A DNA stretch of 64,000 nucleotides. It comes from an uncultured Pseudomonadota bacterium (GTDB lineage: Bacteria; Pseudomonadota; Alphaproteobacteria; Rs-D84). Position numbers and translations under genes: made by a program. The stretch spans positions 11,764 to 75,763 of the forward strand of contig CAMOGA010000003.1 in NCBI GenBank assembly GCA_946613885.1. Reading direction: 5' to 3'. The notes beneath the pieces were generated by a model, which made no database searches, was not told where the DNA came from, and saw nothing but the letters and a program-made list of their open reading frames with translations. Of the stretch, positions 23,085-60,964 are shown piece after piece (within the stretch, counting starts at the first letter, position 1; every line of letters starts with the position of its first letter).

Positions 23085-25673
23085 TTATTCAGTCATAATA
23101 TCATGGAATACTTTTTTTCTAAATTCCCCATCCGTTCCCATTTTTATCGCACAATCTTGTGCACACACATCTTCACAATTGGCTATTGTCATATCGTCCA
23201 AAAGATTCTGGGAGACACCGTTGCGGGACTGATACAATTCTGAACCACGGCTGTTTTGGAATGCTGTTGCTGTGCAATAACATTTTTTGTCATGACATTG
23301 TGCCAGCCCATATACATAACCATAGTCAAATATTAATGAATATTCATTTTTGTTCAGTTTTACTCCAAATATAGAACACGATTGATAGCGTTTACTTTTT
23401 ACGTTTATGCAACGTGTATCTTCTGGTTTTGATCCATCTATGGGTCTGTATGCCACAGCATAAGAATAATTTTGTGATGTATCAATATCTTTCGGATTGC
23501 TGACATCACCATTTTCATTATCTTTGTTGGTATTTGTCTTTTTTTCTGGTTCTTTTTTAGTAGTATTCGTATTTGTGTTTTCGTTATAATTTGCGTTAAT
23601 TATGTCCGTTTGTGCACAGAAACTACGTCCAGTGTTATCTGTAGATATTTTACGTTCACTGGATGGTGTGCATGATGTATGCGTTGCGATAAAACTATTG
23701 ATTCTATCTAAAAATTCGCATGCATCTTGTTCGTATTCCTGAATGCCATCGCTTAAATTGTGTATATGTCCGTTTTCTTTGCAGGTGTCATAATATCCAC
23801 CCCAGGTATCGCCTGCATCAATATCATTTAATTCTGCATCATCCAACACGTAATAAAAACCACTTGTTTTAACAGCAACCAAACAATCATTAAATAGGCG
23901 GTTGGTATTTTTATCAATGACGATGATTTTCTCTTGTATACCGCTAATGCATTGTTTAATTTTATCGAATTGTTCTTCGTTTTGTGTACCTGTTGCCTCT
24001 GATGGTGCGGGTTGCTCATTACCAGACGATGCAGCGTTATTGGAATCACCATCTTTGGCGGTGGATGCAGAATTTGCACCAGAACCCGATTCACTATCTT
24101 CTTCCGCTTCGGACCCTTCAGGTATATCGGCACGTATTTGTAAACATTTTGTTTTATCGGCACTAGACGTGTATCCATCGATGCAACTAATAATTTCACA
24201 TTTTCCGTTTGAAAAAACAGCTTTTTTAATCAGATTTGCATGTTCGTCTTCGGTTGTATTTTTTGCGTCCTCTGTACAATCGTCACCATCCTTGTAGGAT
24301 TCCTCAGAACTATCCTTGTCCACGCATTTACCATCTTTCAATTCTTTACCTTCTGCGCATTTTTGTTGATTTTTTGATTCCTTGTCTTCTTTTTCTTTTT
24401 TATTCGCATCGGTGTCATTACTGCATTTGCCATCTGTCCATGTGCCACCGTTCTTTTCACAATCTTGCTTTTTCTCTTCTTCTTTTAATGCCTTTTTCGC
24501 CTTTTGTGTTTCCAACGCACGTCCCATTGCACCAGATGCCACCAAACCAACAGCCGTTCCAACCCCAGAACCCAACATTGCCGAAGATGCCGCCGTTTGT
24601 GCACGTGTTTCACGATATGCATTTTCTTTATATGTTGTTGCGTTGATACCAAACCATTCCTGCATACAAACAAAAGTATCACCGGCATAACGTTTACGTG
24701 ATGCGGTCGGTGTTGTTTGATTTTCGCCCGCATAAAAATTCACAGTATAAACACAATCAAATGTGCGTTCATCAAACATCGCCCCCATGGATGTGCATGC
24801 CTTGGCCATCAAATCACGCAATTCATATAAACGTTGTTCATCTTTTTTGATGTCTATTTCGGCACTTTCGCGTAATTTACCAATCACGTTTCCAAAACGT
24901 GATGCCAATCCAGAATCTGATTGTGTGCATTCGCGTGCAATCACAGAACATTTTTGAATTGCCGCGTTTTCTGCCGCACGTCCCAAACATTTTGAATAAG
25001 TTATCCCACATTCGTTAACAATACATGCATTATATTGATTCCCACAATTTATCACATCATTATATGATGCCAATTTTACGTTCATATCACGATCGGCCTT
25101 GATTTCTGTGGTTAATAAACGAAATTCTTCGCCACTGCATTCTGTATCACGACGGCATTTGTTTAATTTATCGCCAAACACAGTATCACCATCCAATGCA
25201 CATTTTGTAAAATCATTACCGCACGTTTTCATCATACATTGGCGCAACATCGCATCACATGAATTTTTTCCAGATTTTAATGAATTTCGTGTGTTCATAG
25301 ATGCCTCAGACGCTTCTAGTGCAGCACGTTGTTTACGTATCATTTCTGCAAAAGAATTATCTGATGTCGCATTTTCCATAACAGATGAAACAACATCGTC
25401 AAACTGACTGGATTTATTTTCAATAATCAATTCTGGTTCGTCTGTTATCTCTGGTTCATTATCAACCACAGTTTCTGTGTTTTGTTGAGAATTTGTCTGT
25501 GTCGTATTTGTGGTTGTATTGGTTGACTGGGTCGTTGTAGATTTGCGTGATGCCGGTGCAGAACGAACCGCCGCACGTGGTGCAGCATCCACATAATCAC
25601 AAATTAAAAACAAAGAACACACCGCCATAATTATAGGCATCGCGATTATAAAAAATTTGTTCTGTTTTTTCAT
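23085..25673 (-). CDS. large secreted mosaic Cys-rich protein
   Basis: Signal peptide, T/N/Q-rich region, Cys-rich coiled-coil region, glycine-zipper segment, one DCT..NGKCEIISCIDGY..ADKTKC module (as in ORF 13709), and C-terminal FDYGYVYGLAQC..KCYCTATAF module (as in ORF 2138). Confidence 0.85.
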   Translation of the reverse strand: MKKQNKFFIIAMPIIMAVCSLFLICDYVDAAPRAAVRSAPASRKSTTTQSTNTTTNTTQTNSQQNTETVVDNEPEITDEPELIIENKSSQFDDVVSSVMENATSDNSFAEMIRKQRAALEASEASMNTRNSLKSGKNSCDAMLRQCMMKTCGNDFTKCALDGDTVFGDKLNKCRRDTECSGEEFRLLTTEIKADRDMNVKLASYNDVINCGNQYNACIVNECGITYSKCLGRAAENAAIQKCSVIARECTQSDSGLASRFGNVIGKLRESAEIDIKKDEQRLYELRDLMAKACTSMGAMFDERTFDCVYTVNFYAGENQTTPTASRKRYAGDTFVCMQEWFGINATTYKENAYRETRAQTAASSAMLGSGVGTAVGLVASGAMGRALETQKAKKALKEEEKKQDCEKNGGTWTDGKCSNDTDANKKEKEDKESKNQQKCAEGKELKDGKCVDKDSSEESYKDGDDCTEDAKNTTEDEHANLIKKAVFSNGKCEIISCIDGYTSSADKTKCLQIRADIPEGSEAEEDSESGSGANSASTAKDGDSNNAASSGNEQPAPSEATGTQNEEQFDKIKQCISGIQEKIIVIDKNTNRLFNDCLVAVKTSGFYYVLDDAELNDIDAGDTWGGYYDTCKENGHIHNLSDGIQEYEQDACEFLDRINSFIATHTSCTPSSERKISTDNTGRSFCAQTDIINANYNENTNTNTTKKEPEKKTNTNKDNENGDVSNPKDIDTSQNYSYAVAYRPIDGSKPEDTRCINVKSKRYQSCSIFGVKLNKNEYSLIFDYGYVYGLAQCHDKKCYCTATAFQNSRGSELYQSRNGVSQNLLDDMTIANCEDVCAQDCAIKMGTDGEFRKKVFHDIMTE

Positions 25674-48589: not shown

Positions 48590-50557
48590 TTAAAAAGCCA
48601 ATGTTGTTTTTGCCATAATGAAAAATTCATTTTCATACGATGGATTAACAACATAGGTTGCAGATAAATGTTTATATTTCATGGTGTATTCAACAGACGG
48701 GCGGGTTGATAAATCCAAACCGATATTTGAATACACCATTTGTCCATTATTTGCACGCGCAACCGGAATGTTCATATACATATCGCCGGAAATAATTACA
48801 TCTGGGATTGCGATTTCCAGTGTCCAATCATTATATTGTGTCCCGATTTTTGCAGATGCAGTATAGATGTTTGAAAACCCAGATATAATTGAATTATCTG
48901 TATCTGCGGATGGATTTGTGATACCAAATCGCGCATTTTGATAAAAACGAACATTATCAATATTAAATTCATTTTTATATCCGATAAAATTGGTTAATTT
49001 GTTTGATTTACTGGACATCAATCCGTATGATTCTAATAAATTATTTCCATGAAATCCGAATTCAAACGTATCGAATAAAACCACGGAATCATTATCGTTT
49101 TCACGCAGTTTATCAAAACCACGCCCACGTGGAATAACATTTATGTTGTCTGATAAATTTGTTTTGAACGCGCGTCCGAAATCATCAACAAAGGCAATTT
49201 TGACATTTGAATTTTTGATTGCACCGGCAATCGGACCTGAAACATTAATATTATTCAATGGGACAATATTATCATTTGATAAAACAATACGTGGATTTCC
49301 AACTGGCTGGGTTGCGCGATCCATATTTAATAATCCCCATCCATATACAGAATCAACACCACTTTCGCCCAAATCTGTGGCAGTTGTAAACAATAATTGT
49401 GTAATTTCATTTGCAGACATATACGGAAACGCTTCACGAATTATTGCGATTGCCCCAGAAACCACAGGCGCAGCAAAACTGGTACCAGATGCAAAATCTT
49501 TGACATCTGTGTTCCACCCAGAACCTGGTGCCGCAATACAATAATTTTGTGTGACACCGCATTGGTTGCTGAACCACGCGATTTGACCATAGTTATCAAT
49601 TGCAACCACATTTACAAAATGTCCATTTAATTCTGGAAATGCTAATGGCATCGCAGATAATGCACCGCTTTCGTTTTGGCTGTCGTTGCCGGCTGCCCAA
49701 ACAAATATCGCATCATTATCAATGGCACTGTTGCGAATTTGATTAACAAAATTTTCACTGGTTAAATTATACATATAAGATTGGGCATCAGCATATGTTT
49801 TCGCAGAATTTCCATTATATATCGCGGTTGCCGCATTGTTGTCCGGTGTTGATACCATTTGCCAACTGGCATTATAAACGTTTGCAGATGTGTTTGTCGC
49901 AACAACGTTTGCGATATAATCAAATGAAGCAAATTTATTTTCAGACGTTGTTAACCCCGTATCTGTTATATTTGCACCATTGGCGATATTTTGTGCAATT
50001 TCATGTACTGTGTCGCCATGATTTGCGTGAAAATCATCTAAGATTACAATATTTGTGTTTTTGCCGGAAAAACCACGTGCGTTCGCATATGCAAAATTGA
50101 TAGCATCATATTGCTTATGATTTCTGTTATATTCGGCAGTATTTTTTATCGCATTTATGGTTGAATCTGCAATGTCAGAACCGTTTGTTGTTTGGCTTTG
50201 ATAAGATACTGTGGCGATTCTGCGGTTGTTCACAATATCTGATTGGGCATAGTTCGCGTCTATGTTTGATGACAAAGCAATTCGTTGAAATGAATTTTGA
50301 TTTGTGATTGCACTGGACGAGCCATGATCCCCAGATGTTTGTGATGCTAGTGCAACCCCAACGCCAACCAATGCCGCGCCACCAGCCAATGTTAACAGGG
50401 TGCGATTACCAATCGTTGATTGCGAATTGCATTTTGTCGGGTGTGTATAACGATATTCAATATTATCGCAATTATATCCTGCAAACGCGCCAGTTGTTGC
50501 GAACGCAACCGTTAAAAATACAGAAAAGATGCTTTTTGTTAAATTCATCCCCATCAC
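48590..50557 (-). CDS. S8 subtilisin-family serine protease autotransporter
   Basis: Signal peptide. Asp (IVILDDF), His (HGDTVH), Asn (AAGND) and Ser (SGTSFAAPVVSGAIA) motifs. C-terminal beta-barrel ending ...TTLAF. Confidence 0.85.
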   Translation of the reverse strand: MMGMNLTKSIFSVFLTVAFATTGAFAGYNCDNIEYRYTHPTKCNSQSTIGNRTLLTLAGGAALVGVGVALASQTSGDHGSSSAITNQNSFQRIALSSNIDANYAQSDIVNNRRIATVSYQSQTTNGSDIADSTINAIKNTAEYNRNHKQYDAINFAYANARGFSGKNTNIVILDDFHANHGDTVHEIAQNIANGANITDTGLTTSENKFASFDYIANVVATNTSANVYNASWQMVSTPDNNAATAIYNGNSAKTYADAQSYMYNLTSENFVNQIRNSAIDNDAIFVWAAGNDSQNESGALSAMPLAFPELNGHFVNVVAIDNYGQIAWFSNQCGVTQNYCIAAPGSGWNTDVKDFASGTSFAAPVVSGAIAIIREAFPYMSANEITQLLFTTATDLGESGVDSVYGWGLLNMDRATQPVGNPRIVLSNDNIVPLNNINVSGPIAGAIKNSNVKIAFVDDFGRAFKTNLSDNINVIPRGRGFDKLRENDNDSVVLFDTFEFGFHGNNLLESYGLMSSKSNKLTNFIGYKNEFNIDNVRFYQNARFGITNPSADTDNSIISGFSNIYTASAKIGTQYNDWTLEIAIPDVIISGDMYMNIPVARANNGQMVYSNIGLDLSTRPSVEYTMKYKHLSATYVVNPSYENEFFIMAKTTLAF

Positions 50558-50718
50558 CTATATAAAATATAGTATAAATATTATTTTTGTCAATATATTT
50601 TGTCAATTTTGTATTTTTTTTGTCAAAAATGACTTGACGTTGTTCTATATTGTGGTAGTTTGTGCGTATCGCGGAGCAGAGAGTGTCTATGGGTAATATA
50701 CATGTTAAGGACATTGAA

Positions 50719-51234
50719 ATGACATATATAAGAAACACAAAATACATAACAATTAATAAAGACGGTGTTTTTGTTGGTGGAAAACCTGCAACACATTATC
50801 GCGGGGTAAAAATAGCGTCTGATTCTTGGGAGCATGAAAGCTTTTGTGCTATTCAGGCACGTTATCCGAAAGTTATGGAAATACATGTGTTATCATCTAA
50901 AACCTGTGGTGTGTATGCAAAGGCAGGAAATCCGTCTGCGGAAACTGGGCCAAATGTATGGTGTCGTGTAAAATTTACCAATGGACATATTGGTTCGTGG
51001 GTGCTTCGTAATAAATTTGAATCAGGTAAAGACTTTTGTGCGGAAAACTGTCTTTATGTTTGCATGGCAGAGCTTTGCTTAGAGGAAGATTTTCGCAATG
51101 CAGTATTTGGTGCCAAATTGTTTGATGCTTTAAAAACCTCAGATTTATCTGTTTTTGTTAATAATCCTTTACAAATAAACGGATATGAAATCGTTGTAAA
51201 GAAAATTGCTGAAACACACCAAAACAAAAGATAA
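50719..51234 (+). CDS. array cassette A1 (family A, AT-rich type)
   Basis: Start at MTYIRNTKYITINKDGVFVGGKPATHYRG (AAGGA RBS). Family blocks GNPS..GPNVWCRVKF, CAENC. Tail LQINGYEIVVKKIAETHQNKR*. Confidence 0.8.
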   Translation: MTYIRNTKYITINKDGVFVGGKPATHYRGVKIASDSWEHESFCAIQARYPKVMEIHVLSSKTCGVYAKAGNPSAETGPNVWCRVKFTNGHIGSWVLRNKFESGKDFCAENCLYVCMAELCLEEDFRNAVFGAKLFDALKTSDLSVFVNNPLQINGYEIVVKKIAETHQNKR

Positions 51235-51246
51235 AAGGAAAATAAG

Positions 51247-51687
51247 ATGTCAGAAAAAAACGAAAATCAAACAAACAAAAAAACCAAAGATTTGTCATCA
51301 TCTTTTCCGCTTTACATGATGTGTGTTCTGGTCGCGGGAATGATTGCTGCCGAGATATATCTGACGTTTTGTGGAAAATCAGAATACAAAAATGTCGTTG
51401 TTAAAAACAACAAAGATAAAATATTAGTTCGTGATATTTGTACCGACAAACAAGAAAGAATTTTAACTGGTATTGGTATGCATGATGCTGGTAGCGACTA
51501 TAAATATTTGGTTCCTGGGGATACAATCATCGTCAAAGCAGACAAGGGTGTTTATAAAAACAATAAAGTGCTTTATTATCCAACCATACAATACAATCGT
51601 GATATCACTTTGGCCAGACAGCAACGCGCTAAATTTAATCAAATCAAAGATTCAGTGTTTGCCGAAACACAACAAATCAAAAGATAA
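51247..51687 (+). CDS. array cassette B1 (family B, N-terminal TM anchor)
   Basis: 146 aa. TM helix FPLYMMCVLVAGMIAAEIYLTF. About 90 percent identical to ORF 57502. Tail SVFAETQQIKR*. Confidence 0.85.
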   Translation: MSEKNENQTNKKTKDLSSSFPLYMMCVLVAGMIAAEIYLTFCGKSEYKNVVVKNNKDKILVRDICTDKQERILTGIGMHDAGSDYKYLVPGDTIIVKADKGVYKNNKVLYYPTIQYNRDITLARQQRAKFNQIKDSVFAETQQIKR

Positions 51688-51700
51688 AAGGTTCGTAATC

Positions 51701-52015
51701 ATGGCAAAATCATTGTATGTAAAGGATATTGTAAGTGCACCATATATATGTACTGTGCCGAGCGGCGGTGTAAATGCGATTAAATGTTATCCAGATGCAA
51801 AAACATACCATATTGGTGGTGTAAAGATAGGTTATTCTGCAAAAGAACAAACATTGATTGTTTTATTGCGTTATTCAAGAGAACAAAATGACAAAGCCAT
51901 AAGAACGTTTAAAGAACTGTTTTGTCCTGGACAGGTTGCTTGGGAAAAACAGAAGGGTACTGAAACAATTTTGGAAGAACATTTACGAGAAAGAACACAA
52001 CAAATCAAAAGATAA
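51701..52015 (+). CDS. array cassette C1 (family C)
   Basis: Start MAKSLYVKDIVSAPYICTVPSGGVNAIKCYPDA at ATG 51701 behind the conserved junction. The track ORF 51473 is an upstream extension through the junction. Tail ERTQQIKR*. Confidence 0.75.
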   Translation: MAKSLYVKDIVSAPYICTVPSGGVNAIKCYPDAKTYHIGGVKIGYSAKEQTLIVLLRYSREQNDKAIRTFKELFCPGQVAWEKQKGTETILEEHLRERTQQIKR

Positions 52016-52028
52016 AAGGTTCGTAACC

Positions 52029-52571
52029 ATGGCAAAATCTGATAAACGGGATTTTTATATTGATTTGGCAACGAATACTGTTGAAAGTTTTCGGGATTCT
52101 GCCGATGCCAATTATACGATGACATATAATTTTGGTGATTGGCAGGTGTCCATCAGTTTTTATCGGAATAATATCAAAGGCGGGGCGATATATAAACGCG
52201 ACAATCTGTGTGAGCCGGTTGCCAAATGGTCGCGTTATATGGAAAGCGATAAATCTGTGTTTGATATGTTAATTGCGGTGCAAAGCAAAAGTTTAGGTCG
52301 TCCATATGTAAACCCGTTTGACAAAAAAGCAAATGTGATAGAACGTGTTGTCGGGGCACCTTATATATGCACTATACCCGCTGGTGGTTTGCGTGCGATT
52401 AAATGTTATCCTGATGCCATAACTTGTTTTATTCGCGGTATAAAAATAGGATATTCTGAGCGCGAAAAAACTATGATTGTCCCACTAAAGACGCCTGTGT
52501 CTGAAATAGAAAAGTGTAAAACAATTTTGGAAGAACATTTACAAGAACGAACACAACAAATCAAAAGATAA
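52029..52571 (+). CDS. array cassette C2 (family C with ~100-aa N-terminal extension)
   Basis: Start MAKSDKRDFY at ATG 52029 behind the junction. C-terminal half GAPYICTIPAGGLRAIKCYPDA...TILEEHLQERTQQIKR* aligns with C1. Confidence 0.75.
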   Translation: MAKSDKRDFYIDLATNTVESFRDSADANYTMTYNFGDWQVSISFYRNNIKGGAIYKRDNLCEPVAKWSRYMESDKSVFDMLIAVQSKSLGRPYVNPFDKKANVIERVVGAPYICTIPAGGLRAIKCYPDAITCFIRGIKIGYSEREKTMIVPLKTPVSEIEKCKTILEEHLQERTQQIKR

Positions 52572-52584
52572 AAAGGTAAATAAA

Positions 52585-53070
52585 ATGACAGATATACCAA
52601 ATACAGAATATATTACGGTTAATAAAGATGGGTGTTTTGTTGGGGGAAAACCTGCGACAACATATCGAGGTGAGGAAATATATGGTATAGATTATGTAAA
52701 AAAAGCATTTGAATTGACGCAGAGACAAAATCCAGATGTGGAAGAATTTCATGTCGGTGCGTTTAAAACACCTGGTAAATATGCCAAGGCTGGCAATCCA
52801 TCCGGTGAATGTGGCCCGAACGCATGGTGTCGTATAAAGTTGCGTGGCATGGATGTACCCTCGGCTTTGTGGGTCTTTGACTGTTCATACCCTTCGGTGA
52901 CCGATTGTGCGTATTTCTGTGCGAACTATTGCATGTCCTTTGTTCGCGCCCGCGTGGGTTTCCGCACCGCAGTTTTGGAAGCGGCAGAATCGCAGGTGCG
53001 TCCACGAATAACACCAAATCAAATTATGATTGAAAAAATCCAACAAGATACAAAAGTAAAAGGTATATAA
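52585..53070 (+). CDS. array cassette A2 (family A, GC-rich patch, truncated tail)
   Basis: MTDIPNTEYITVNKDGCFVGGKPATTYRG..., NAWCRIKL, GC-rich segment 52838-53005, tail ...IMIEKIQQDTKVKGI*. Confidence 0.85.
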   Translation: MTDIPNTEYITVNKDGCFVGGKPATTYRGEEIYGIDYVKKAFELTQRQNPDVEEFHVGAFKTPGKYAKAGNPSGECGPNAWCRIKLRGMDVPSALWVFDCSYPSVTDCAYFCANYCMSFVRARVGFRTAVLEAAESQVRPRITPNQIMIEKIQQDTKVKGI

Positions 53071-53071
53071 A

Positions 53072-53764
53072 ATGACAGAATTGGAAAATGTAAGACAGGT
53101 GACTCGGGACCTAAATGAATGGTTAGGCGAAATGCCTTATTTTCCGAACACAGAATATATCACTGTAAATGCGGACGAAATTTTCGTTGGTGGAAAACCT
53201 GCAACGCATTATCTGGGATACGAAATAATTTCACCAGAGTATATTAAAAAGACTTTTAAAGAAATACAAAATAAATTTTCAAATCTGCAAGAAATCCATA
53301 TATTATCATCGTCAACCGATGGTTATGTGGCACCAATACGAAAAGAACGTATAGCGACTGGAGGGTATGCAGCCAGTGAATTACGGCCAAGCCTGCAACA
53401 CGGCAACGCGGCATGGTGTCGTATAAAATTAAATGATGGAACAGAGGGAATTTGGACGTATGAATGCTACTATGGTACTTTTTCAGATTGTGCTGAAAGA
53501 TGTGCACAGGATACTATGAGGGATTTGACTAATGAAAAGATTCCTGCTACTCGATTTATTTTAGCAATTGCAACGAAATCCAAAACGAAATGCACAGCAG
53601 CAAAAAAACAAAATACAAAACCAGTACCACAGCCGGAAACAGAACTTAAACAAACATTAAGAAATACAGATTTATCCAAACTTGCTGGGAAAACTGTTGA
53701 ATTAAATGGATACAAAATCATGATTGAAAAAACCAAACAAGATATAATAACCAAAGGAAAATAA
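53072..53764 (+). CDS. array cassette A3 (family A with N-terminal extension, AT-rich type)
   Basis: ..PNTEYITVNADEIFVGGKPATHY.., AAWCRIKL, DCAERCAQD, tail LNGYKIMIEKTKQDIITKGK*. 1-nt spacer from A2. Confidence 0.85.
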   Translation: MTELENVRQVTRDLNEWLGEMPYFPNTEYITVNADEIFVGGKPATHYLGYEIISPEYIKKTFKEIQNKFSNLQEIHILSSSTDGYVAPIRKERIATGGYAASELRPSLQHGNAAWCRIKLNDGTEGIWTYECYYGTFSDCAERCAQDTMRDLTNEKIPATRFILAIATKSKTKCTAAKKQNTKPVPQPETELKQTLRNTDLSKLAGKTVELNGYKIMIEKTKQDIITKGK

Positions 53765-53765
53765 C

Positions 53766-54053
53766 ATGGCAGAAAAAGCGGAATCAATAATTTTATCAAC
53801 CGGCAAAGATGAAGACGGTGTTTTTGTACGGGCATATAATACGCATTGGAATACGTTCATTGTAAGTCAAAAGAATTATTATGCTAATTATTATCCTGAG
53901 CGCAGTAGAAATATAGATTTATCAGAATTACAACGTGGTGACCGGGTAATATTTGTTCGTCTTCAGTATAAATATTTTATTGAAAATCATTTAACAATGG
54001 AACAAATAAGAAATTCCTTTATCCAAGAGCGAACAAAACAAGACGGCAGATAA
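53766..54053 (+). CDS. array cassette S1 (singleton, 95 aa)
   Basis: 1-nt spacer from A3. Tail ..FIQERTKQDGR* resembles the common tail. Confidence 0.65.
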   Translation: MAEKAESIILSTGKDEDGVFVRAYNTHWNTFIVSQKNYYANYYPERSRNIDLSELQRGDRVIFVRLQYKYFIENHLTMEQIRNSFIQERTKQDGR

Positions 54054-54139
54054 AAATGCTTGCCCTGTAATTTTTTTGACTTAATACGCATGGCGCTATA
54101 TTTATGCGTAAATATAATGGATTTTTTTTAATAAAATAC

Positions 54140-54168
54140 TTGATTTTTTTATAATATTTGGCTATTAT
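54140..54168 (+). promoter_or_regulatory. candidate rpsB promoter
   Basis: TTGATT (54140-54145), 17-nt spacer, TATTAT (54163-54168). A ~115-nt structured leader lies before ATG 54284. Confidence 0.4.
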
Positions 54169-54283
54169 GGTGGCACGCATTTAATGCGAATAACACAGGC
54201 AACAGACATAATTTCTGTCCAAACACGTTTGGTTTTTTACGTCTGCTGACCGAGGATAACAACAGAAAACAAAGGATTTAGAT

Positions 54284-55138
54284 ATGGCATTGCCAACTTT
54301 TACAATGAAACAATTAATGGAAGCGGGCGTTCATTTTGGACATCATACACGTCGTTGGAACCCGTTAATGACACCTTATGTTTATGGGGTCAAAGATAAA
54401 ATTCATATTATCAATTTGAACAAAACTGCACCGTTGTTGCACCGTTCTTTGGTTGCTTTGGAAGCAATCGCAGCGGCTGGTGGAAAAATCTTGTTTGTTG
54501 CAACAAAACATCAGGCAAAAGATATTGTCAAAGATGCGGCAGAACGTTGTGGTCAATATTATGTAAATAACCGTTGGTTGGGTGGTATGTTGACTAACTG
54601 GACAACTGTTTCACAAAGTATTCGTCGTTTGAAAAAAATGGAAAACGATATTGCTAATGCAGACAAATTGGGATTAACCAAAAAAGAAGTCGGTGTTATG
54701 ACCAAAGAAGTTGCTAAATTGCGTGATATTTTCGGTGGTATTTTGGAAATGCACGGTATTCCTCAGGCGATGATTGTTATTGATGTGCCACGTGAAATGA
54801 ACGCTGTTCATGAAGCAAAAGTTTTGGACATTCCAACAATTGCTATCTGTGATACTAATGCAAACCCAGAATTGGTTGATTACCCAGTTCCAGGTAACGA
54901 TGATGCATCACGTGCAACACAATTGTATTGCGATTTATTCGTAGATGCAATTTTGTCTGGTATTGAAAAAAGATTGGGCGGCGCAGCTGGCAAAAAGGCA
55001 GACGTTGATAACGCAGAGGCCGCTGCAGAAGAATACGAACATGATTTAAAGGTCAAAGAAGCAAAACAAAAATCAAAAACTTCCGAAGCCCGCGAAGTTC
55101 GTCGCAGCAAATTGGCAGACAAAGCCGACAAACAATAA
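54284..55138 (+). CDS. rpsB: 30S ribosomal protein S2
   Basis: MKQLMEAGVHFGHHTRRWNP... typical S2. K/E/A-rich C-terminal extension. Confidence 0.97.
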   Translation: MALPTFTMKQLMEAGVHFGHHTRRWNPLMTPYVYGVKDKIHIINLNKTAPLLHRSLVALEAIAAAGGKILFVATKHQAKDIVKDAAERCGQYYVNNRWLGGMLTNWTTVSQSIRRLKKMENDIANADKLGLTKKEVGVMTKEVAKLRDIFGGILEMHGIPQAMIVIDVPREMNAVHEAKVLDIPTIAICDTNANPELVDYPVPGNDDASRATQLYCDLFVDAILSGIEKRLGGAAGKKADVDNAEAAAEEYEHDLKVKEAKQKSKTSEAREVRRSKLADKADKQ

Positions 55139-55160
55139 CTTATAAAGAAAGGAAATAAAA

Positions 55161-56030
55161 ATGGCAGAAGTGACAGCTAAACTGGTTCAAGAATTGCGTG
55201 AAAAAACATCCGCAGGTATGATGGATTGTAAAAAAGCATTGGTTGAAAACAATGGCGATATCGAGGCCGCTGCTGATTGGTTGCGCCAAAAAGGTATCGT
55301 AAAGGCTGCATCTAAGGCGGGCCGTGTTGCGGCATCTGGTTTGGTGACGGTTGTTAAATGCGATAATATGGGTTGTGTTGTTGAATTAAACGCAGAAACA
55401 GATTTCGTTGCTAAAAATGATAAATTCCAATCTTTGGTTGCAAACGTTGCAAACAAAGCACTGGAATTGTCTGGTGATTTCGATGCAACATTAAAGGCAG
55501 TCCAAGATGATATCGCTGCAACAATTTCCACAATTGGTGAAAATATGTCTTTGCGCCGTATTGCCAAGGTTAATGGTGACCATATTTATTCTTATGTTCA
55601 CAATGCTTTGGTTCCAGGTATGGGACAAATTGGTGTTGTTGTTGCAATCAATGGCGATGATGCACGTATTGACGAAATTGGTGGCAAAATCGCAATGCAT
55701 ATTGCTGCGAACAAACCTGAATTTATGACTATTGCTGACGTTGATCCAAAGGCGGTTGAACGCGAAAAGAAAGTATTCATTGAATCTGGGGCAACAGCGG
55801 GTAAACCTGAAAACATTGTTGAAAAAATGGTCGAAGGTCGTATCCAAAAATGGTATGCGGAATCAGTATTAGAAGAACAACCATTTGTTATGGACCCTTC
55901 TAAGAAAGTTAAAGATGTTGTCGCAGAACACGGCGGTAAATTGGCCGGGTTCGCATACTATGTCTTGGGCGAAGGTATCCAAAAACGCGAAGACAATTTG
56001 GCTGATGAAGTTGCAAAAATGTTGAAATAA
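55161..56030 (+). CDS. tsf: elongation factor Ts
   Basis: VTAKLVQELREKTSAGMMDCKKALVENNGDIEAAADWLRQKG... typical EF-Ts. Confidence 0.97.
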   Translation: MAEVTAKLVQELREKTSAGMMDCKKALVENNGDIEAAADWLRQKGIVKAASKAGRVAASGLVTVVKCDNMGCVVELNAETDFVAKNDKFQSLVANVANKALELSGDFDATLKAVQDDIAATISTIGENMSLRRIAKVNGDHIYSYVHNALVPGMGQIGVVVAINGDDARIDEIGGKIAMHIAANKPEFMTIADVDPKAVEREKKVFIESGATAGKPENIVEKMVEGRIQKWYAESVLEEQPFVMDPSKKVKDVVAEHGGKLAGFAYYVLGEGIQKREDNLADEVAKMLK

Positions 56031-56059
56031 TTTCGCATAAATCAAAAAAAACGGAGAGA

Positions 56060-56089
56060 GTCGCACAGGTTTTATTTGTGCGACTTTTT
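56060..56089 (+). terminator. rho-independent terminator after tsf
   Basis: GTCGCACA-GGTTTTATT-TGTGCGAC followed by TTTTT. Confidence 0.75.
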
Positions 56090-56109
56090 CAGCAAAAAAG
56101 GGATGAAAT

Positions 56110-56628
56110 ATGGCGAACATTCCAAATACAGAATATATCACAATTAATAAAGATGATGTTTTTGTTGGTGGAAAACCGGCGATAAAATATCGTGGGGTAG
56201 AAATAGCGTGGATTGAATATTTATGGGAACATTTTGAAGCGATACAAAAAATACATCCAGATATTATGGAAATGCACGCCCTGTCATCAGAAACACGTGG
56301 TGAATATGGCGTGATTGGTAACCCATCGGCAAAACACGGTTACAACGCATGGTGTCGTGCAAAATTTAATAATGGACGTGTTTTCCCATGGGTGTTTGTT
56401 AGAGAGTATGATTTTATGGATGAATGCGCAAGTCGTTGTGCATATCAAACTCTGGATGACTTTCGTCTTTCTGCACAAATGCGTTCTGCCGCTTTGGGGA
56501 CACCAGATCATTTGATAAAGGCATTAAAAGACGTGGATTTATCTAACTGTGTTGGCAAACCTGTGCAATTAAACGGATATGAAATCGTTGTAAGAAAACT
56601 TGCTGAAACTAAACAAAATAAAAGATAA
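56110..56628 (+). CDS. array cassette A4 (family A, AT-rich type)
   Basis: MANIPNTEYITINKDDVFVGGKPAIKYRG.., NAWCRAKF, ECASRCAYQ, tail VQLNGYEIVVRKLAETKQNKR*. Confidence 0.85.
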   Translation: MANIPNTEYITINKDDVFVGGKPAIKYRGVEIAWIEYLWEHFEAIQKIHPDIMEMHALSSETRGEYGVIGNPSAKHGYNAWCRAKFNNGRVFPWVFVREYDFMDECASRCAYQTLDDFRLSAQMRSAALGTPDHLIKALKDVDLSNCVGKPVQLNGYEIVVRKLAETKQNKR

Positions 56629-56640
56629 AAGGAGTAAATA
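56572..56640 (+). repeat. 69-nt direct repeat, copy 1 (3' tail of A4 plus junction); copy 2 at 56988-57056
   Basis: AACGGATATGAAAT[C/T]GTTGTAAGAAAACTTGCTGAAAC[T/C]AAACAAA[A/T][T/C]AAAAGATAAAA... is repeated on both sides of cassette 56641..56979. Confidence 0.85.
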
Positions 56641-56979
56641 ATGTCTAAAATTTTAAAAGAAAAATGGAAAAATGTTCGTGCTGCAAAAAAAGCAAAAAAG
56701 ATCGCAGAATCTGAAATAGTCGAAACAAGCACTGAAAGGCCAGATAATGTTTGCATATTTAATGAGATTCAACGGATTCCAGATAGGTTGAAAGATAAAG
56801 AATTTCCTGCACCAATGATAATTGTTCGTCATTGTGAACATTTTTCAGAAGGTCAAATCTGTGATAACGCAGATTGTCCTATGCATGATAAAAATGTGCA
56901 ATATATATCTGCATTAAAAAAACACAAACAAGAACGTCGTGAATTTTTCCACATGTTATTTCATGGTCGTAAAAGATAA
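56641..56979 (+). CDS. array cassette S2 (singleton, basic N-terminus, Cys/His cluster)
   Basis: 112 aa. HCEHFSEGQICDNADCPMHD looks like a small metal-binding motif. Tail ..HGRKR*. Bracketed by the 69-nt direct repeats. Confidence 0.65.
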   Translation: MSKILKEKWKNVRAAKKAKKIAESEIVETSTERPDNVCIFNEIQRIPDRLKDKEFPAPMIIVRHCEHFSEGQICDNADCPMHDKNVQYISALKKHKQERREFFHMLFHGRKR

Positions 56980-56987
56980 AATAAAAA

Positions 56988-57043
56988 ACGGATATGAAAT
57001 TGTTGTAAGAAAACTTGCTGAAACCAAACAAATCAAAAGATAA
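56988..57043 (+). pseudogene. orphan 3' tail fragment of a family-A cassette
   Basis: Encodes only NGYEIVVRKLAETKQIKR* with no upstream body. Near-identical to the end of A4. Confidence 0.8.
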
Positions 57044-57056
57044 AAAGGTAAATAAA

Positions 57057-57488
57057 ATGGCGAATCCATACAGTGTGTTTGACGAAAATGGACACTATAA
57101 ACCCGGAACATATAATAACGGGTATGGTTCCAAAACAGGAATGCCGATTAAAAAAAATCCAGAATGGCATGAAAGTGATTTTCATGGCACGTCCGCTGTT
57201 TATCCAACGTATGTTTATAATGTGTATCCTTATCGTACAATGGGTGGTTTATTTGGTAGTAAACCTGTCACATACTATAATGTTCGTGTGCGGTTTAATT
57301 CTGAATCCAAAGGTATGGAGCCACCACGCGCATTGGATTGTGCAGAAATTTATGTGGATAACAGCCCTTATCAATCATATTGGGAAGCGGTATATGAATT
57401 TCATGATGGTTTGTTTAAATCTGCACAACAAAAGGCAAATGATTTTTATAGCGAAATTGTAAATCAAATACGTTCGAATAAAAGATAA
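57057..57488 (+). CDS. array cassette S3 (singleton, 143 aa)
   Basis: Start MANPYSVFDENGHYKPG at ATG 57057 behind the junction. The track ORF 57015 is an upstream extension. Tail ..IVNQIRSNKR*. Confidence 0.7.
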   Translation: MANPYSVFDENGHYKPGTYNNGYGSKTGMPIKKNPEWHESDFHGTSAVYPTYVYNVYPYRTMGGLFGSKPVTYYNVRVRFNSESKGMEPPRALDCAEIYVDNSPYQSYWEAVYEFHDGLFKSAQQKANDFYSEIVNQIRSNKR

Positions 57489-57501
57489 AAGGTTCGCAAT
57501 C

Positions 57502-57942
57502 ATGACAGAAAAAAACGAAAATCAAACAAATAAAAAAACCAAAGATGTATCTTCATCTTTTCCACTTTATATGATGTGTGTTCTGGTCGCGGGAATGATT
57601 GGTGCCGAGATATATCTGACATTTGGTAGAAAATCAGAATACAAAAATGTCGTTGTTAAAAACAACAAAGATAAAATATTAGTTCGTGATATTTGTACCG
57701 ACAAACAAGAAAGAATTTTAACTGGTATTGGTATGCATGATGCTAGCAGCGACTATAAATATTTGGTTCCTGGGGATACAATCATCGTCAAATTCGACAA
57801 AGATGAGTATAAAAGCAATAAAGTGCTTTATTATCCATTTATACAATACAATCGTGACAGTACCTGGGCCAGACAGCAACGCGCTAAATTTAACCAAATC
57901 AAAGATTCTGTGTTTGCCGAAACGCAACAAAATAAAAGATAA
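57502..57942 (+). CDS. array cassette B2 (family B, N-terminal TM anchor)
   Basis: 146 aa. 14 differences from B1 by hand alignment. Tail SVFAETQQNKR*. Confidence 0.85.
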   Translation: MTEKNENQTNKKTKDVSSSFPLYMMCVLVAGMIGAEIYLTFGRKSEYKNVVVKNNKDKILVRDICTDKQERILTGIGMHDASSDYKYLVPGDTIIVKFDKDEYKSNKVLYYPFIQYNRDSTWARQQRAKFNQIKDSVFAETQQNKR

Positions 57943-57956
57943 AAAGGTTCGCAATC

Positions 57957-58514
57957 ATGACAGATACTAAAAATACAGAATATATCACTGTAAATGCCAA
58001 TGGGATTTTTGTTGGGGGAAAAACCACAACAACATATCGTGGTGAAGATATATGCGGTATGCAAGATGTCAAAAATATGTTTGCATGGATGCAGGAACAA
58101 AATCCAGAAATAGAGGAATTTCATATTGGTGCATTTGAAACGCGTGGCGAACATGCAAAACCGGGCAATCCGAATGGTGTGTTTGGTCCAAATGCATGGT
58201 GTCGTGTGAAATATAAAAATGGTAACTTGGGTGCTTGGGTCTTCAACTACACGAGCAATTCGGCCGCCGGTTGTGCGAACTACTGTGCGGGCAACTGCGC
58301 GTACTACGTCCGCGGCGACTCCGCCTTTCGCGCGGCGGTGTTTGGTGCGACAATTAAAAAACAAAATGTCAAACCTGTGACACAGCCAGAAGCAGAACTT
58401 AAACGAAAATTACAAGGAACAGATTTATCAAAATTGGTTGGCAAACCTGTGCAATTAAACGGTTATAAAATCATTGTTGAAAAAATTGCCGAAACGCAAC
58501 AAAATAAAAGATAA
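57957..58514 (+). CDS. array cassette A5 (family A, GC-rich patch)
   Basis: MTDTKNTEYITVNANGIFVGGKTTTTYRG.., NAWCRVKY, GC-rich patch 58236-58349, tail VQLNGYKIIVEKIAETQQNKR*. Confidence 0.88.
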   Translation: MTDTKNTEYITVNANGIFVGGKTTTTYRGEDICGMQDVKNMFAWMQEQNPEIEEFHIGAFETRGEHAKPGNPNGVFGPNAWCRVKYKNGNLGAWVFNYTSNSAAGCANYCAGNCAYYVRGDSAFRAAVFGATIKKQNVKPVTQPEAELKRKLQGTDLSKLVGKPVQLNGYKIIVEKIAETQQNKR

Positions 58515-58527
58515 AAGGTTCGCAATC

Positions 58528-59088
58528 ATGACAGATATACCAAATACAGAATATATTACAGTTAACAAAGACGGAATTTTTGTTGGGGGAAAACCTGCGA
58601 CAACATATCGTGGTGAAGAAATACGTTATTCAAACGTTGTGCGGAAATCTTTTGCCGACATCCAAAGATTAAATAAAAATGTTGCGGAATTGCATGTGTC
58701 GTCATCGGAAACATTTGGCGAATATGCAGAACCGGGTAATCCATCAGGAATCCATGGTCGAAACGCATGGTGTCGGGTGAAATTTAATGATGGATATGTT
58801 GCATCGTGGGTCTTCCGCTACACGTACAGTTCGGTCGCCCGTTGTGCGCTCAACTGTGCGTACGACTGCGCGCACGACATCCGTGAGCTCGCGCCGTTTC
58901 GTTTGGCGGTGTTGAGTGCGAATGATAAACAAAATTCACAGCCAAAACAAATTCAAAATCCAATCGTGTTATGTGATAAAAATGGAATTTATCATGTCAA
59001 AATTGGACATGAAGAATTTTCCGGCACACGCACAGAGGTTTTGAAACAAATGACATTGCGTATAAAAAGTTTTTTAAAGGTTCGGTAA
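58528..59088 (+). CDS. array cassette A6 (family A, GC-rich patch, divergent C-terminus)
   Basis: Start MTDIPNTEYITVNKDGIFVGGKPATTYRG at ATG 58528 behind the junction. GC-rich patch 58807-58920. Unrelated tail ..RIKSFLKVR*. Confidence 0.88.
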   Translation: MTDIPNTEYITVNKDGIFVGGKPATTYRGEEIRYSNVVRKSFADIQRLNKNVAELHVSSSETFGEYAEPGNPSGIHGRNAWCRVKFNDGYVASWVFRYTYSSVARCALNCAYDCAHDIRELAPFRLAVLSANDKQNSQPKQIQNPIVLCDKNGIYHVKIGHEEFSGTRTEVLKQMTLRIKSFLKVR

Positions 59089-59093
59089 AATCT

Positions 59094-59120
59094 AAAACCG
59101 TCCGGATGGGCGGTTTTTTG
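59094..59120 (+). terminator. rho-independent terminator closing the array
   Basis: AAAACCGTCCGGATGGGCGGTTTTTTG. Confidence 0.8.
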
Positions 59121-59187
59121 TTGATATCATTTGTTGCAAAGCAAGATTTTTCATGCTATTATTTCTCGTGATACAGAAAAAGGTTTT

Positions 59188-60405
59188 ATGATGAAAAATA
59201 CTCTGATGTTTGAATTAGAACAACGCGGATTTATTAATCAATGTTCAAATATTAATGCCGTTGCAGATTTATTGGATAACGGGCAAATCGCGGTTTATCT
59301 GGGTTCTGATCCAACTGCGGATTCTTTGCATGTGGGACATTTGGTGCCAATTATGATGATGCGTTGGTTGCAAAAATATGGTCATAAACCAATTATGTTG
59401 GTTGGTGGTGCAACCGGTCGAATTGGTGACCCGTCTGGCCGTGATACAGGTCGCCCAATGATGACTGAGGAAGTTTTACAAAAAAATGTTGCCGGGTTGA
59501 AAAAATCTTATTCTAAGTTTTTGAATTTTGGCGATGGGGAATCTGATGCGATTATCGTTGATAATTATGATTGGATGAAAAAATATTCGCATTTGGATTT
59601 TTTGGCGCAATATGGTTTGGATTTTACAATTCCACGTATGTTATCAATGGAAAGTGTAAAGAAACGTCTGGAAAACGGTATGACGTTTTTGGAATTTAAT
59701 TATATGACTTTTCAGGCGGTTGATTTCTTGACTCTTTATAAAGAACACAATTGTGTAATGCAACTGTGCGGTGCAGACCAATGGGGTAATGCAATTATGG
59801 GGGTGGAATTAATTCGCAAAAAAATGGGTAAAGAAGCATTTGTTTTGTCAACTGCACTGATTACAGATTCAAATGGAAACAAAATCGGAAAATCTGCCGG
59901 AAACGCAGTATGGGTTAATGAAGATAAAACAACCCCATATGAATATTATCAATATTTCCGCAATACACCGGACGAATTGGTTGAAAAGTTTTTAAAGATA
60001 TTCACAGAAATTCCATTGGAAGAAATTGCTGAATTGTCTAAAAAACAGGGCGCAGAATTAAATGATGTAAAAAAACGTCTGGCATTCGCAGCAACCGAAA
60101 TTGCGCATGGAACAGACGCGGCAAAATCCGCAGAAGATGCAGCAGCGGCATTATTCGGCGGTGGTGCAAACAATGCAAATGTGCCGTCAATTGATATTGA
60201 CATGCCAGAATCAATGGGGATAGTTGATTTCTTGGTTGCGGTAAAATTATTTGATTCTAAATCAGAAGCCCGCAGAACCATAGAACAGGGTGGTATCCAG
60301 ATTGATGGTGAAAAAATTACCGATAAAAATTACGTTGTTGAACCGCGCGAATCCATAATGGTCCAGCGTGGCAAGAAAGTATTTTTGCGTGTTAATGTAA
60401 AATAA
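59188..60405 (+). CDS. tyrS: tyrosine--tRNA ligase
   Basis: Start at MMKNTLMFELEQRGF (AAAAGG RBS). HVGH (HIGH) and KIGKS (KMSKS) motifs. C-terminal S4-like domain. Confidence 0.95.
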   Translation: MMKNTLMFELEQRGFINQCSNINAVADLLDNGQIAVYLGSDPTADSLHVGHLVPIMMMRWLQKYGHKPIMLVGGATGRIGDPSGRDTGRPMMTEEVLQKNVAGLKKSYSKFLNFGDGESDAIIVDNYDWMKKYSHLDFLAQYGLDFTIPRMLSMESVKKRLENGMTFLEFNYMTFQAVDFLTLYKEHNCVMQLCGADQWGNAIMGVELIRKKMGKEAFVLSTALITDSNGNKIGKSAGNAVWVNEDKTTPYEYYQYFRNTPDELVEKFLKIFTEIPLEEIAELSKKQGAELNDVKKRLAFAATEIAHGTDAAKSAEDAAAALFGGGANNANVPSIDIDMPESMGIVDFLVAVKLFDSKSEARRTIEQGGIQIDGEKITDKNYVVEPRESIMVQRGKKVFLRVNVK

Positions 60406-60449: not shown

Positions 60450-60526
60450 GCGCCCATGGCTCAATTGGATAGAGCAACAGATTTCTAATCTGTGGGTTGC
60501 AGGTTCGAGTCCTGCTGGGCGCGCCA
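60450..60526 (+). tRNA. tRNA-Arg (anticodon UCU), CCA encoded
   Basis: Hand fold: GCGCCCA acceptor, anticodon stem ACAGA/TCTGT, loop TTTCTAA, T-arm GCAGG-TTCGAGT-CCTGC. Confidence 0.9.
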
Positions 60527-60964
60527 AAAATTAAATCGGGCAATGTCCCGATTTTATTTTGTCCCAGCAGGACGAGAACCTGGTTCGACAAGCAGTAGAT
60601 TTGGTAAGTGAAACGCGACCAAATCGTCACGATTGCCGCGCAGGCATTTATGCCGAGCGAGTACGCAGATAAACAATTAAGAAAATTTTAAAAAATCGCA
60701 GTTAACAAGATTTTTTTAATTTTATTTTATGTTTATCAAGGAAAACTGCTGGGCGCGCCAAAAATTAAATCGGGCAATGTCCCGATTTTATTTTTGTCCC
60801 AGCGGGACGAGAACCTGGTTCGACAAGCAGTAGATTTGGTAAGTGAAACGCGACCAAATCGTCACGATTGCCGCGCAGGCATTTATGCCGAGCGAGTACG
60901 CAGATAAACAATTAAGAAAATTTTAAAAAATCGCAGTTAACAAGATTTTTTTAATTTTATTTTA
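60512..60964 (+). repeat. tandem direct repeat (2 x ~220-234 bp) starting with the last 15 nt of tRNA-Arg
   Basis: CTGCTGGGCGCGCCAAAAATTAAATCGGGCAATGTCCCGATTTTATTTT... occurs at 60512 and again at 60746. Homology runs to about 60964. Confidence 0.9.

Follow-up and report, generated by a model that had tools for sequence, protein, structure and literature searches.

Rows of small, strain-variable genes are known from several bacterial systems. In the cassette arrays of integrons, unrelated and promoterless open reading frames (ORFs) stand in one orientation, each unit brings its own 3' boundary element, and the content varies between strains and is shared between species. Families that diversify by segmental gene conversion, such as Helicobacter bab/hop, Neisseria pilE/pilS and Anaplasma msp2, keep conserved termini. 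Orphan toxin/immunity arrays comprise the orphans of contact-dependent inhibition (CDI) and Rhs systems and the recombinase-associated acquired interbacterial defence (AID) arrays of Bacteroidales, in which an intergenic sequence is repeated. Here we describe a short unit that recurs at the gene boundaries of two arrays of small ORFan genes in a 64-kb window, by which we mean the whole stretch of DNA analysed (64,000 nucleotides of contig CAMOGA010000003.1 from an uncultured alphaproteobacterium). On balance we think it probable that this unit acts as a boundary module between the promoterless cassettes of two polycistronic arrays, that its repetition supplies homology for exchange, and that the C-terminal tail which it encodes is mainly a hitch-hiker. 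Rather than forming a new kind of system, the arrays are a variant of cassette and gene-conversion systems already known.

ORFs and their translations delimit seven tightly packed ORFan cassettes in array 1 (50689..54053, plus strand), namely A1, B1, C1, C2, A2, A3 and S7, which are separated by intergenic gaps of 12, 13, 13, 13, 1 and 1 nt and lie between a divergent S8 peptidase gene on one side and rpsB on the other. Array 2 (56110..59088, plus strand), between tsf and tyrS, carries the cassettes A4, S9, S10, B2, A5 and A6 and one orphan remnant. Within the region of 50.6-59.1 kb, arrays are thus found on both sides of rpsB (54284-55138) and tsf (55161-56030). By sequence the array genes comprise family A (n=6), family B (n=2), family C (n=2) and the singletons S7, S9 and S10. 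Family A proteins begin with M(T/A)DIPNTEYITVNKDGIFVGGKPAT and family B proteins have a single N-terminal membrane helix; none of the array proteins of the window gave a significant match in Pfam, PHROGs or PADLOC.

At 9-11 gene boundaries in both arrays the same unit is found, which reads ...CAA-AAY/ATC-AAA-AGA, the stop codon TAA, AAGG, 8-9 nt and ATG. Its tail motif GAAACNCAACAAAWYAAAAGATAA, allowing <=3 mismatches, is matched 8 times (0.02 expected), in each case at the end of an array gene, and its ribosome-binding half AAAAGATAAAAGGTTCGCAATCATG has 4 matches versus 0 expected. AAGG stands 8-10 nt ahead of every array ATG. A preliminary description of the sequence had named nine such junctions, and the unit is present at all nine, with the tails AETQQ(N/I)KR, ERTQQIKR, RSNKR and GRKR on unrelated protein bodies as described. 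The next ATG, placed there 13-14 nt after the stop, lies 12-14 nt from it at unit junctions and 1 nt from it at two other junctions. Three of the junctions had been called nearly identical; this holds for 57918-57959 and 58489-58530, which differ by 1 nt in the length of an A run, but 57465-57504 has only the 3' 28 nt (AATAAAAGATAAAAGGTTCGCAATCATG) in common with them. Elsewhere in the window, tightly linked gene pairs are joined by TAA-GGA (e.g. 13698/13709 and 47083/47095), not AGA-TAA-AAGG, and the array junction is therefore a copied module and not the general solution of this genome. A metagenome scan with AAAGATAAAAGGTTCGYAA returned 19 loci, of which only L033, L040, L045 and L047 are true relatives, the rest being chance matches.

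All junctions lie on the plus strand. In array 1, the A1-to-B1 junction (51211..51249) consists of the tail AETHQNKR, TAA, AAGG, the spacer AAAATAAG and ATG. It is followed by the junctions B1 to C1 (51661..51703), with the array-1 tail variant ACA..ATC, C1 to C2 (51989..52031), and C2 to A2 (52545..52587), with the spacer TAAATAAA. The last two junctions of this array are frame-shifted. At A2 to A3 (53047..53074) the sequence AAAAG-TAAAAGGT is read as K-V-K-G, the tail becomes ..KVKGI and only 1 nt separates the stop from the ATG, a design that recurs in L010 (REQKIKGS and stop) and P0136; at A3 to S7 (53741..53768) the ribosome-binding site AAAGGA is located inside the upstream ORF, whose tail is ..ITKGK. 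In array 2, the A4-to-S9 junction (56605..56643) has the spacer AGTAAATA. The gene at 56641-56979 is followed by a bodiless remnant of a family-A 3' end (56980-57043, plus strand), 19 codons ending in ..NGYEIVVRKLAETKQIKR and a stop, and then by the junction to S10 (to 57059); the gene end previously described at 57020-57059 is in fact the end of this orphan remnant. The remaining junctions are S10 to B2 (57465..57504), B2 to A5 (57918..57959), with the array-2 tail variant ACG..AAT, and A5 to A6 (58489..58530).

The unit is divided between its two neighbours, as the tail, the stop and AAGG go with the upstream gene and the spacer and ATG with the downstream gene. The spacer AGTAAATA precedes S9 in both the window and a sister strain despite a different upstream neighbour; likewise, AAAATAAG precedes B1 in the window and in sister-strain contig L063, and in three genomes B2 and family C have TTCGCAATC ahead of them. 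The S10-to-B2 junction is identical in the metagenome contig L033, where a family-A gene comes next instead. The tail variants are specific to the array and not to the family, with ACA..ATC in B1, C1 and C2 and ACG..AAT in B2 and A5.

The arrays differ between strains by whole cassettes. In rpsB, tsf, A4, S7 and the flanks, the sister strain (L060/L063 contig, 89,953 bp) and the window share 98.3-99.4% identity. Its array 1 is A1-B1-C1::X-A-methyltransferase-like-S7, compared with A1-B1-C1-C2-A2-A3-S7 in the window, and its array 2 is A4-S10-B2-(A7/A8, one 345-aa ORF)-S9-A6', compared with A4-S9-remnant-S10-B2-A5-A6. Five of the six breakpoints mapped between these strains fall in junction modules. 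Collinear blocks end in such modules at window positions 56646 (a breakpoint placed at 56628-56646, in the A4-to-S9 junction), 56986, 58492-58497 and 53753, the last of these being in the A3-to-S7 junction. The S9 block has moved, and its start at 56567 falls in the 3' end of the A gene next to the A4-to-S9 junction. A third arrangement is found in L064, which encodes an identical RpsB protein and has only A1 and an 85-aa gene upstream of rpsB. The preliminary description had suggested that the junction could be a recombination substrate and that breakpoints should be sought in related strains; the whole-cassette differences among strains and species, with most breakpoints in junction modules, support this suggestion.

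In the window S9 is flanked by direct repeats of ~60-65 nt on the plus strand. The left copy (56571..56630) is the 3' end of A4 and the right copy (56986..57045), with 93% identity to it, is the orphan family-A 3' end. In the sister strain the sequence of the right repeat is the genuine 3' end of A4 and is joined straight to S10. A mosaic structure of gene ends is also seen among family-A proteins in general. In ten clusters of >=90% identity, variable columns pile up in the first 20% and the last 10% of the protein (85/584 at the ends versus 61/1368 in the middle, p = 1.6e-13), and the differences at the ends are alternative blocks that recur in other clusters. Near-identical genes of this family have mosaic ends. 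Among paralogous A genes the 5' 60-120 nt share 80-90% identity, versus 40-70% in the interior, a contrast that was set aside because it is inseparable from strong protein-level selection on the N-terminus.

Three further observations concern the composition and assembly of the arrays. Many contigs with an identical RpsB (L064-L072, 1.5-4.4 kb) stop inside or at the edge of the arrays, which is consistent with assembly breaks induced by repeats or polymorphism. Neighbouring family-A cassettes are repeatedly fused into two-domain ORFs of ~300-370 aa (L060 3113-4150; L009 10001-11116; L013 10855-11772; P0002, P0003, P0017 and P0035), and in the L060 fusion the junction is read in another frame (..KTKDKRFVIMTDIP..); these fusions could be real or could reflect homopolymer errors in the assembly. 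A recurrent cassette encodes a 267-aa protein resembling methyltransferases dependent on S-adenosylmethionine (Pfam DUF3419, E = 3e-10; L063 8656-9459, L011 11323-12126 and L007 245-1075), which ends in ..LY and TAG and is without the Arg tail. Only two array-associated genes had a significant Pfam match, the second being that of a DUF7192 protein upstream of A1 in L064 (E = 2e-36).

Between species, cassettes are more similar than the genes that surround them. All identities that follow are for DNA and relative to the window. In L074, rpsB, tsf and tyrS are 81.6, 83.2 and 81.8% identical, while S10 reaches 93.2%, the B gene 94.8% and the 3' half of C2 93.4%. In L009, S10 is 93.8% identical with rpsB and tsf at 83%, and in L011, A4 is 91.5% identical with rpsB at 85.5%. 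Within the species the pattern is reversed, S10 of L063 (95.4%) being less similar than its own flanks (rpsB 99.1%, tsf 98.6%). In L074 the three genes are together upstream of rpsB in the order S10-C-B, so that both order and array differ from the window; L074 5281-6447 matches window 57041-57948 and 52348-52573, and its high-identity blocks stop within 10 nt of junction stop codons. Because selection could not make orphan genes more similar than those of S2 and EF-Ts, this pattern points to recent transfer and replacement of cassettes and indicates, as far as sequence comparison goes, that cassettes are horizontally exchanged between species as whole units.

These comparisons already contradict the view that the repeat is a mere relic of recent tandem duplication with no consequence for recombination, to which we assign hardly any probability. 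Paralogues are indeed present (B1/B2, C1/C2 and six A copies), and the junctions of B1 and B2 are about as diverged as the gene bodies. However, the unit is common to the unrelated bodies of A, B, C, S9 and S10, it joins different partners in different genomes, and both the rearrangements and the between-species transfers map to it.

A site-specific system resembling that of integrons, with AGA-TAA-AAGG as its crossover core and a recombinase encoded elsewhere that would cut at AGATAAAAGG, would account for cassettes that are promoterless, unrelated in content and in one orientation. It would also fit the between-species exchange with block ends <=10 nt from the core, and the travel of the tail with the upstream unit and of the spacer with the downstream one, just as an integron cassette carries its own attC. 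However, integron arrays have IntI, and none is found nearby here: no intI or other integrase gene and no transposase gene was seen among the window ORFs (translations read by eye), and none is among the Pfam records within ~10 kb of the arrays in L060, L061, L063 and L074. The attC site is an imperfect palindrome of 57-141 bp, whereas here there are ~13 nt plus a coding tail that overlaps the stop and the ribosome-binding site; the intergenic space measures only 1-14 nt. The RNA of the junctions is unstructured, since eight junctions with their flanks (86-91 nt) gave minimum free energies of -2.4 to -11.8 kcal/mol (z -1.9 to +0.9 versus shuffles), and an Rfam search of 50400-59300 found nothing relevant. 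An attC-like hairpin, a riboswitch or a processing structure at the junction was rejected on the strength of these folds, which are no better than those of shuffles, and of the Rfam search. Moreover, one breakpoint lies inside a gene body, and the imperfect 60-nt repeats around S9 and the gene ends that are mosaic over tens of codons are typical of homologous exchange, which sets the arrays apart from integrons, as does their position on the flanks of rpsB-tsf in a genome of <1 Mb. A dedicated site-specific system is therefore very unlikely in our judgement.

With the boundary-module explanation, which we prefer, the junction looks like an ordinary translational-coupling junction whose homology is passive, and not like a dedicated recombination site. 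As in coupled operon junctions, the stop is 1-14 nt before the ATG, and the ribosome-binding site abuts or lies within the end of the upstream ORF; the upstream 3' coding end is within the initiation region, which is unstructured and A-rich, and the termination upstream ribosomal binding site (TURBS) of caliciviruses, an element at the 3' end of the upstream ORF, is a viral analogue of such termination-reinitiation. What differs is that the form found in the arrays is a copied module and not merely a convergent design, and that coupling is read here from sequence. Each cassette would thus close with three elements, namely a tail that is short and polar (..Q-N/I-K-R), the stop TAA and AAGG as the Shine-Dalgarno core; the following 8-9 nt and ATG would be part of the downstream cassette, and the everyday job of the module would be to stop and re-start translation in an unstructured, A-rich stretch.

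The same module, repeated a dozen times, to which family A adds 60-100 nt of conserved gene ends, would offer the homology for unequal crossing-over, gene conversion and the uptake of foreign cassettes. Genes could then be gained, lost, moved between arrays and passed from one species to another, always as whole units with the junction as the point of cutting. Unrelated proteins may have come to share the tail by running into, or by fusion to, a resident junction, typically a family-A 3' end, and the orphan remnant at 56980-57043 may be such an intermediate of tail capture. The repeat, the cassette polymorphism, the places of the breakpoints, the surplus similarity of cassettes between species and the lack of RNA structure or of a nearby integrase are direct observations, whereas we infer translational coupling, homologous recombination of the RecA type and the capture origin of the tail.

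Compared with gene-conversion families, the arrays likewise have conserved 5' and 3' ends around variable middles, mosaic ends, and copy number and order that vary among strains. They differ in that unrelated families share the junction, all members are complete ORFs with their own starts, and no single expression site is evident. With toxin/immunity arrays they have in common the strain-variable rows of small ORFans, a repeated boundary sequence and horizontal exchange, but no toxin, immunity or recombinase signature was found here with Pfam and PADLOC. The repeat of AID arrays is a separate intergenic sequence, whereas the boundary here is in the coding tail and the ribosome-binding site.

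To gauge how well the tail is conserved, we compared six pairs of orthologous cassettes across species; among the sequences were two short metagenome contigs without an assigned host species. In the gene body (-150 to -31 from the stop) identity was 0.85 at codon position 3 and 0.92 at positions 1-2, and in the last ten codons it was 0.82 and 0.89, respectively. Between species the tail is thus conserved no better than the gene body, and only the 13 nt AAA-AGA-TAA-AAGG stand out slightly (74/78 positions identical). Excess conservation of synonymous sites in the tail, which the preliminary description had proposed to look for, was rejected accordingly (position 3, 0.82 versus 0.85 in the body). 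Since the tail is not unusually conserved, the identity of junctions on unrelated genes is due to copying and not to exceptional constraint. The recombination proposal survives despite this ordinary conservation because rearrangements map to the junction.

The amino acid at the very end of the tail behaves differently from this general pattern. Arg is the C-terminal residue of 60/84 distinct array tails (71%) from 17 loci, versus 16/179 background genes (9%; Fisher p = 7e-25), and Lys that of another 10/84; examples of loci with Arg-ending genes are L017 5316-11150, L020 7873-13245 and L011 8478-12918. The tail may therefore be read instead as a functional C-terminal signal (Lys/Gln/Gly-Arg) for export, sorting or recognition by a partner-directed machinery, with the DNA repeat as a by-product. 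We regard this as possible but unlikely. The Arg is kept through synonymous codon changes and in the last genes of arrays, R is the final residue of 17/20 family-B sequences (19 homologues plus the copy in the window), and the tail is disordered in the AlphaFold2 model (predicted local distance difference test, pLDDT, of ~50 in the last block). Moreover, large signal-peptide proteins have a terminal domain that is a homologue of the C-terminal half of family A; the array copies lack a signal peptide. The host itself, judging by sequence, is a reduced-genome gut alphaproteobacterium related to Candidatus Enterousia (order Rs-D84). This lineage, which belongs to an uncultured order, has genomes of <1 Mb, lacks most biosynthesis, and is thought to consist of obligately partner-dependent cells (PMC12306168), which is a further point in favor of a signal. 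Family A homologues come exclusively from rumen and faecal metagenome-assembled genomes, labelled as uncultured (alpha)proteobacterium or, for the more distant ones, as Candidatus Enterousia.

However, the peptide is not maintained as would be expected of a signal. Apart from the ordinary conservation of the last ten codons, there is non-conservative variation at position -3 (N or I) and at position -5 (Q, K or H), and frame shifts by one nucleotide swap the peptide of otherwise intact genes (KVKGI, ITKGK, KIKGS and NKIKGK) while the DNA motif persists. In other genomes family A has at least six unrelated tail types, including SGQNTRG, ISTRTK, NNAQNKR, IEKRKRTM and RVKRILHVR; in SGQNTRG, T-R-G is the translation of the ribosome-binding site ACAAGGGGG. 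Family B has an N-terminal membrane helix besides the tail. The terminal Arg codons (AGA 40, CGA 10, CGG 5, CGT 4 and AGG 1) are in 56/60 cases rare purine-ending ones, although CGT and CGC make up 67-80% of the Arg codons of these genomes, which points to translation rather than to the peptide level. More distant Enterousia-type arrays have CGA, CGG and CGT in place of AGA. The preference for AGA was dropped as evidence of a DNA-level element, since 11/16 Arg-ending background genes also use this codon.

Secretion offers no direct support either for the sorting or secretion tag proposed in the preliminary description. Substrates of type IV secretion systems (T4SS) require for transfer that their last 20-30 residues be positively charged and Arg-rich. 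The array proteins resemble them in that otherwise unrelated proteins, here from an alphaproteobacterium, have a short, hydrophilic and unstructured C-terminus with basic residues at its end. K-R is found at this end, but the net charge is low (e.g. GYKIIVEKIAETQQNKR; ~+1 to +2), the peptide can be replaced by a frame shift, and no gene for a T4SS or a type I secretion system was seen. Indeed, no secretion system was seen in the 64-kb window (of a roughly 0.9-Mb genome; translations read by eye) or in the annotated flanks, and a published survey of the lineage makes no mention of secretion systems (PMC12306168).

Several points weigh against the boundary-module explanation that we prefer. One is the strong, clade-wide and array-specific preference for Arg endings, which a model of coupling and recombination leaves unexplained. 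The Arg endings include those of 14/23 last-of-block genes, which have no downstream gene to couple to, and AGA-TAA-AAGG is retained before the terminator at array ends, in S10 of L009 and in B of L023. The homology of the bare junction is short (25-45 nt), and one collinear block ends inside the C1 body, at 51965. Finally, cassette shuffling is deduced from a comparison of assemblies, and metagenome assemblies can mis-join repeats, a concern that is countered by the agreement of three independent long contigs and several short ones. Established effects of the C-terminal context suggest three candidate causes of the Arg terminus: it may influence termination or pausing, shield the C-terminus from tail-specific proteolysis, or be a true peptide signal.

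Family A has a second feature of interest. A G+C-rich, adenine-poor region of ~110 nt is found in A5 (58236..58350), A2 (52870-52986) and A6 (58807-58921), all on the plus strand and in otherwise A+T-rich genes, and is absent from A1, A3 and A4. An alignment of 18 homologous segments spans 105 columns, of which 47 are conserved (G 18, C 15, T 14 and A 0). The variable columns are at codon positions 1-2 in 24/30 cases, and the variable codons NNC/NNT are placed between invariant TGT-GCG, TGC-GCG, GTC-CGC and TTT-CGT. Judged from the alignment, this pattern is the signature of adenine-directed mutagenesis by a diversity-generating retroelement (DGR). The variable region is stable within 90% clusters, which gives no sign of ongoing hypermutation.

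A template repeat for this region would be AAC-rich and match TGGGTCTTC(AAC)n..GCGGTG. The window contains no fourth copy of the variable region, and a BLAST search with the variable regions matched only family-A genes in the window and in L001-L047. No reverse transcriptase motif was found in the same set, and no protein tested matched a reverse transcriptase in Pfam. The 139-aa and 302-aa genes beside array 2 in L009 are, by Pfam, neither a reverse transcriptase nor the DGR accessory protein Avd. Viral contigs were scanned three times for DGR parts, with either no result or unrelated repeats. A 993-bp contig (L073) carries, at 370-480 and 601-720, two tandem, AAC-rich, template-like copies of the module (..WVFNNSNTSAGNCANNCANNCGNNVNN..FRAAV), which look like DGR template repeats for a variable region of the family-A class; there is no reverse transcriptase on this contig.

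Family A thus shares with DGR proteins the adenine-free conserved columns, the NNC/NNT variable codons and the AAC-rich template-like copies of L073. It differs from them in the stability of the variable region in close relatives and in its predicted structure, which matches neither a C-type lectin nor an Ig-like scaffold. When the A5 model from AlphaFold2 (pLDDT 87) was compared with the PDB by Foldseek, no fold matched (best E-value 0.19), and a search of PDB sequences with the family A profile found none. The profile retrieved 673 representative proteins, including large signal-peptide proteins that end in the same CWC(K/R)..WVF..FRAAVFG module. The C-terminal half of family A (CWC[KR]..WVF..C..C..C..FR.AVF) corresponds to the C-terminal domain of these large Cys-rich proteins, of which the small array copies are free-standing versions without a signal peptide. 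Proteins with a related terminal domain are encoded in the window at 2138-2956 and 23085-25673 (both minus strand), and others are P0281, P0315 and P0304.

A bolder proposal would combine these features into an integrase-free platform, in which the ~13-nt AGA-TAA-AAGG core would be a universal splice point, so that promoterless ORFs could pass between arrays, between strains and between species and be translatable on arrival; the Arg tail would serve as an export or recognition tag of partner-directed effectors, some of them diversified by a DGR. We consider this combination rather improbable.

The sole strong intrinsic terminator, a 10-bp stem followed by a T run (59094..59117, plus strand), closes array 2 ahead of tyrS, and there are no terminators inside the arrays. 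Another hairpin with a T run follows tsf (56060..56089, plus strand), 20 nt ahead of A4. Promoter-like matches were no commoner than in shuffled sequences. Since there are none between the tsf hairpin and array 2, this array is probably transcribed by read-through from rpsB-tsf. Where the S8 peptidase gene and array 1 diverge, the promoter region (50585-50630) holds three direct copies of TTTTGTCAA, a possible operator, and several minus-strand matches to TTGACA/TATATT are found there. AGA is the final codon of 10/13 array genes, and a tRNA-Arg(TCT), which decodes AGA, is encoded ~1.4 kb downstream of array 2 (window 60450-60964 region). Behind it lies a 235-bp tandem duplication (60512-60729 and 60746-60964), whose copies both open with the final 15 nt of the tRNA, in the manner of an att-type scar.

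In this partner-dependent organism with a genome of <1 Mb, two loci beside essential ribosomal genes are given over to ORFans with a fast turnover. If the boundary-module explanation is true, a junction of stop and ribosome-binding site would double as the homology that keeps a gene pool exchangeable without an integrase or attC. A captured ORF would arrive with working stop and start signals, which would provide a simple route for the flux of accessory genes in reduced genomes. The interaction genes of the clade may then be findable by searching for AGA-TAA-AAGG junctions and small proteins with a terminal Arg.

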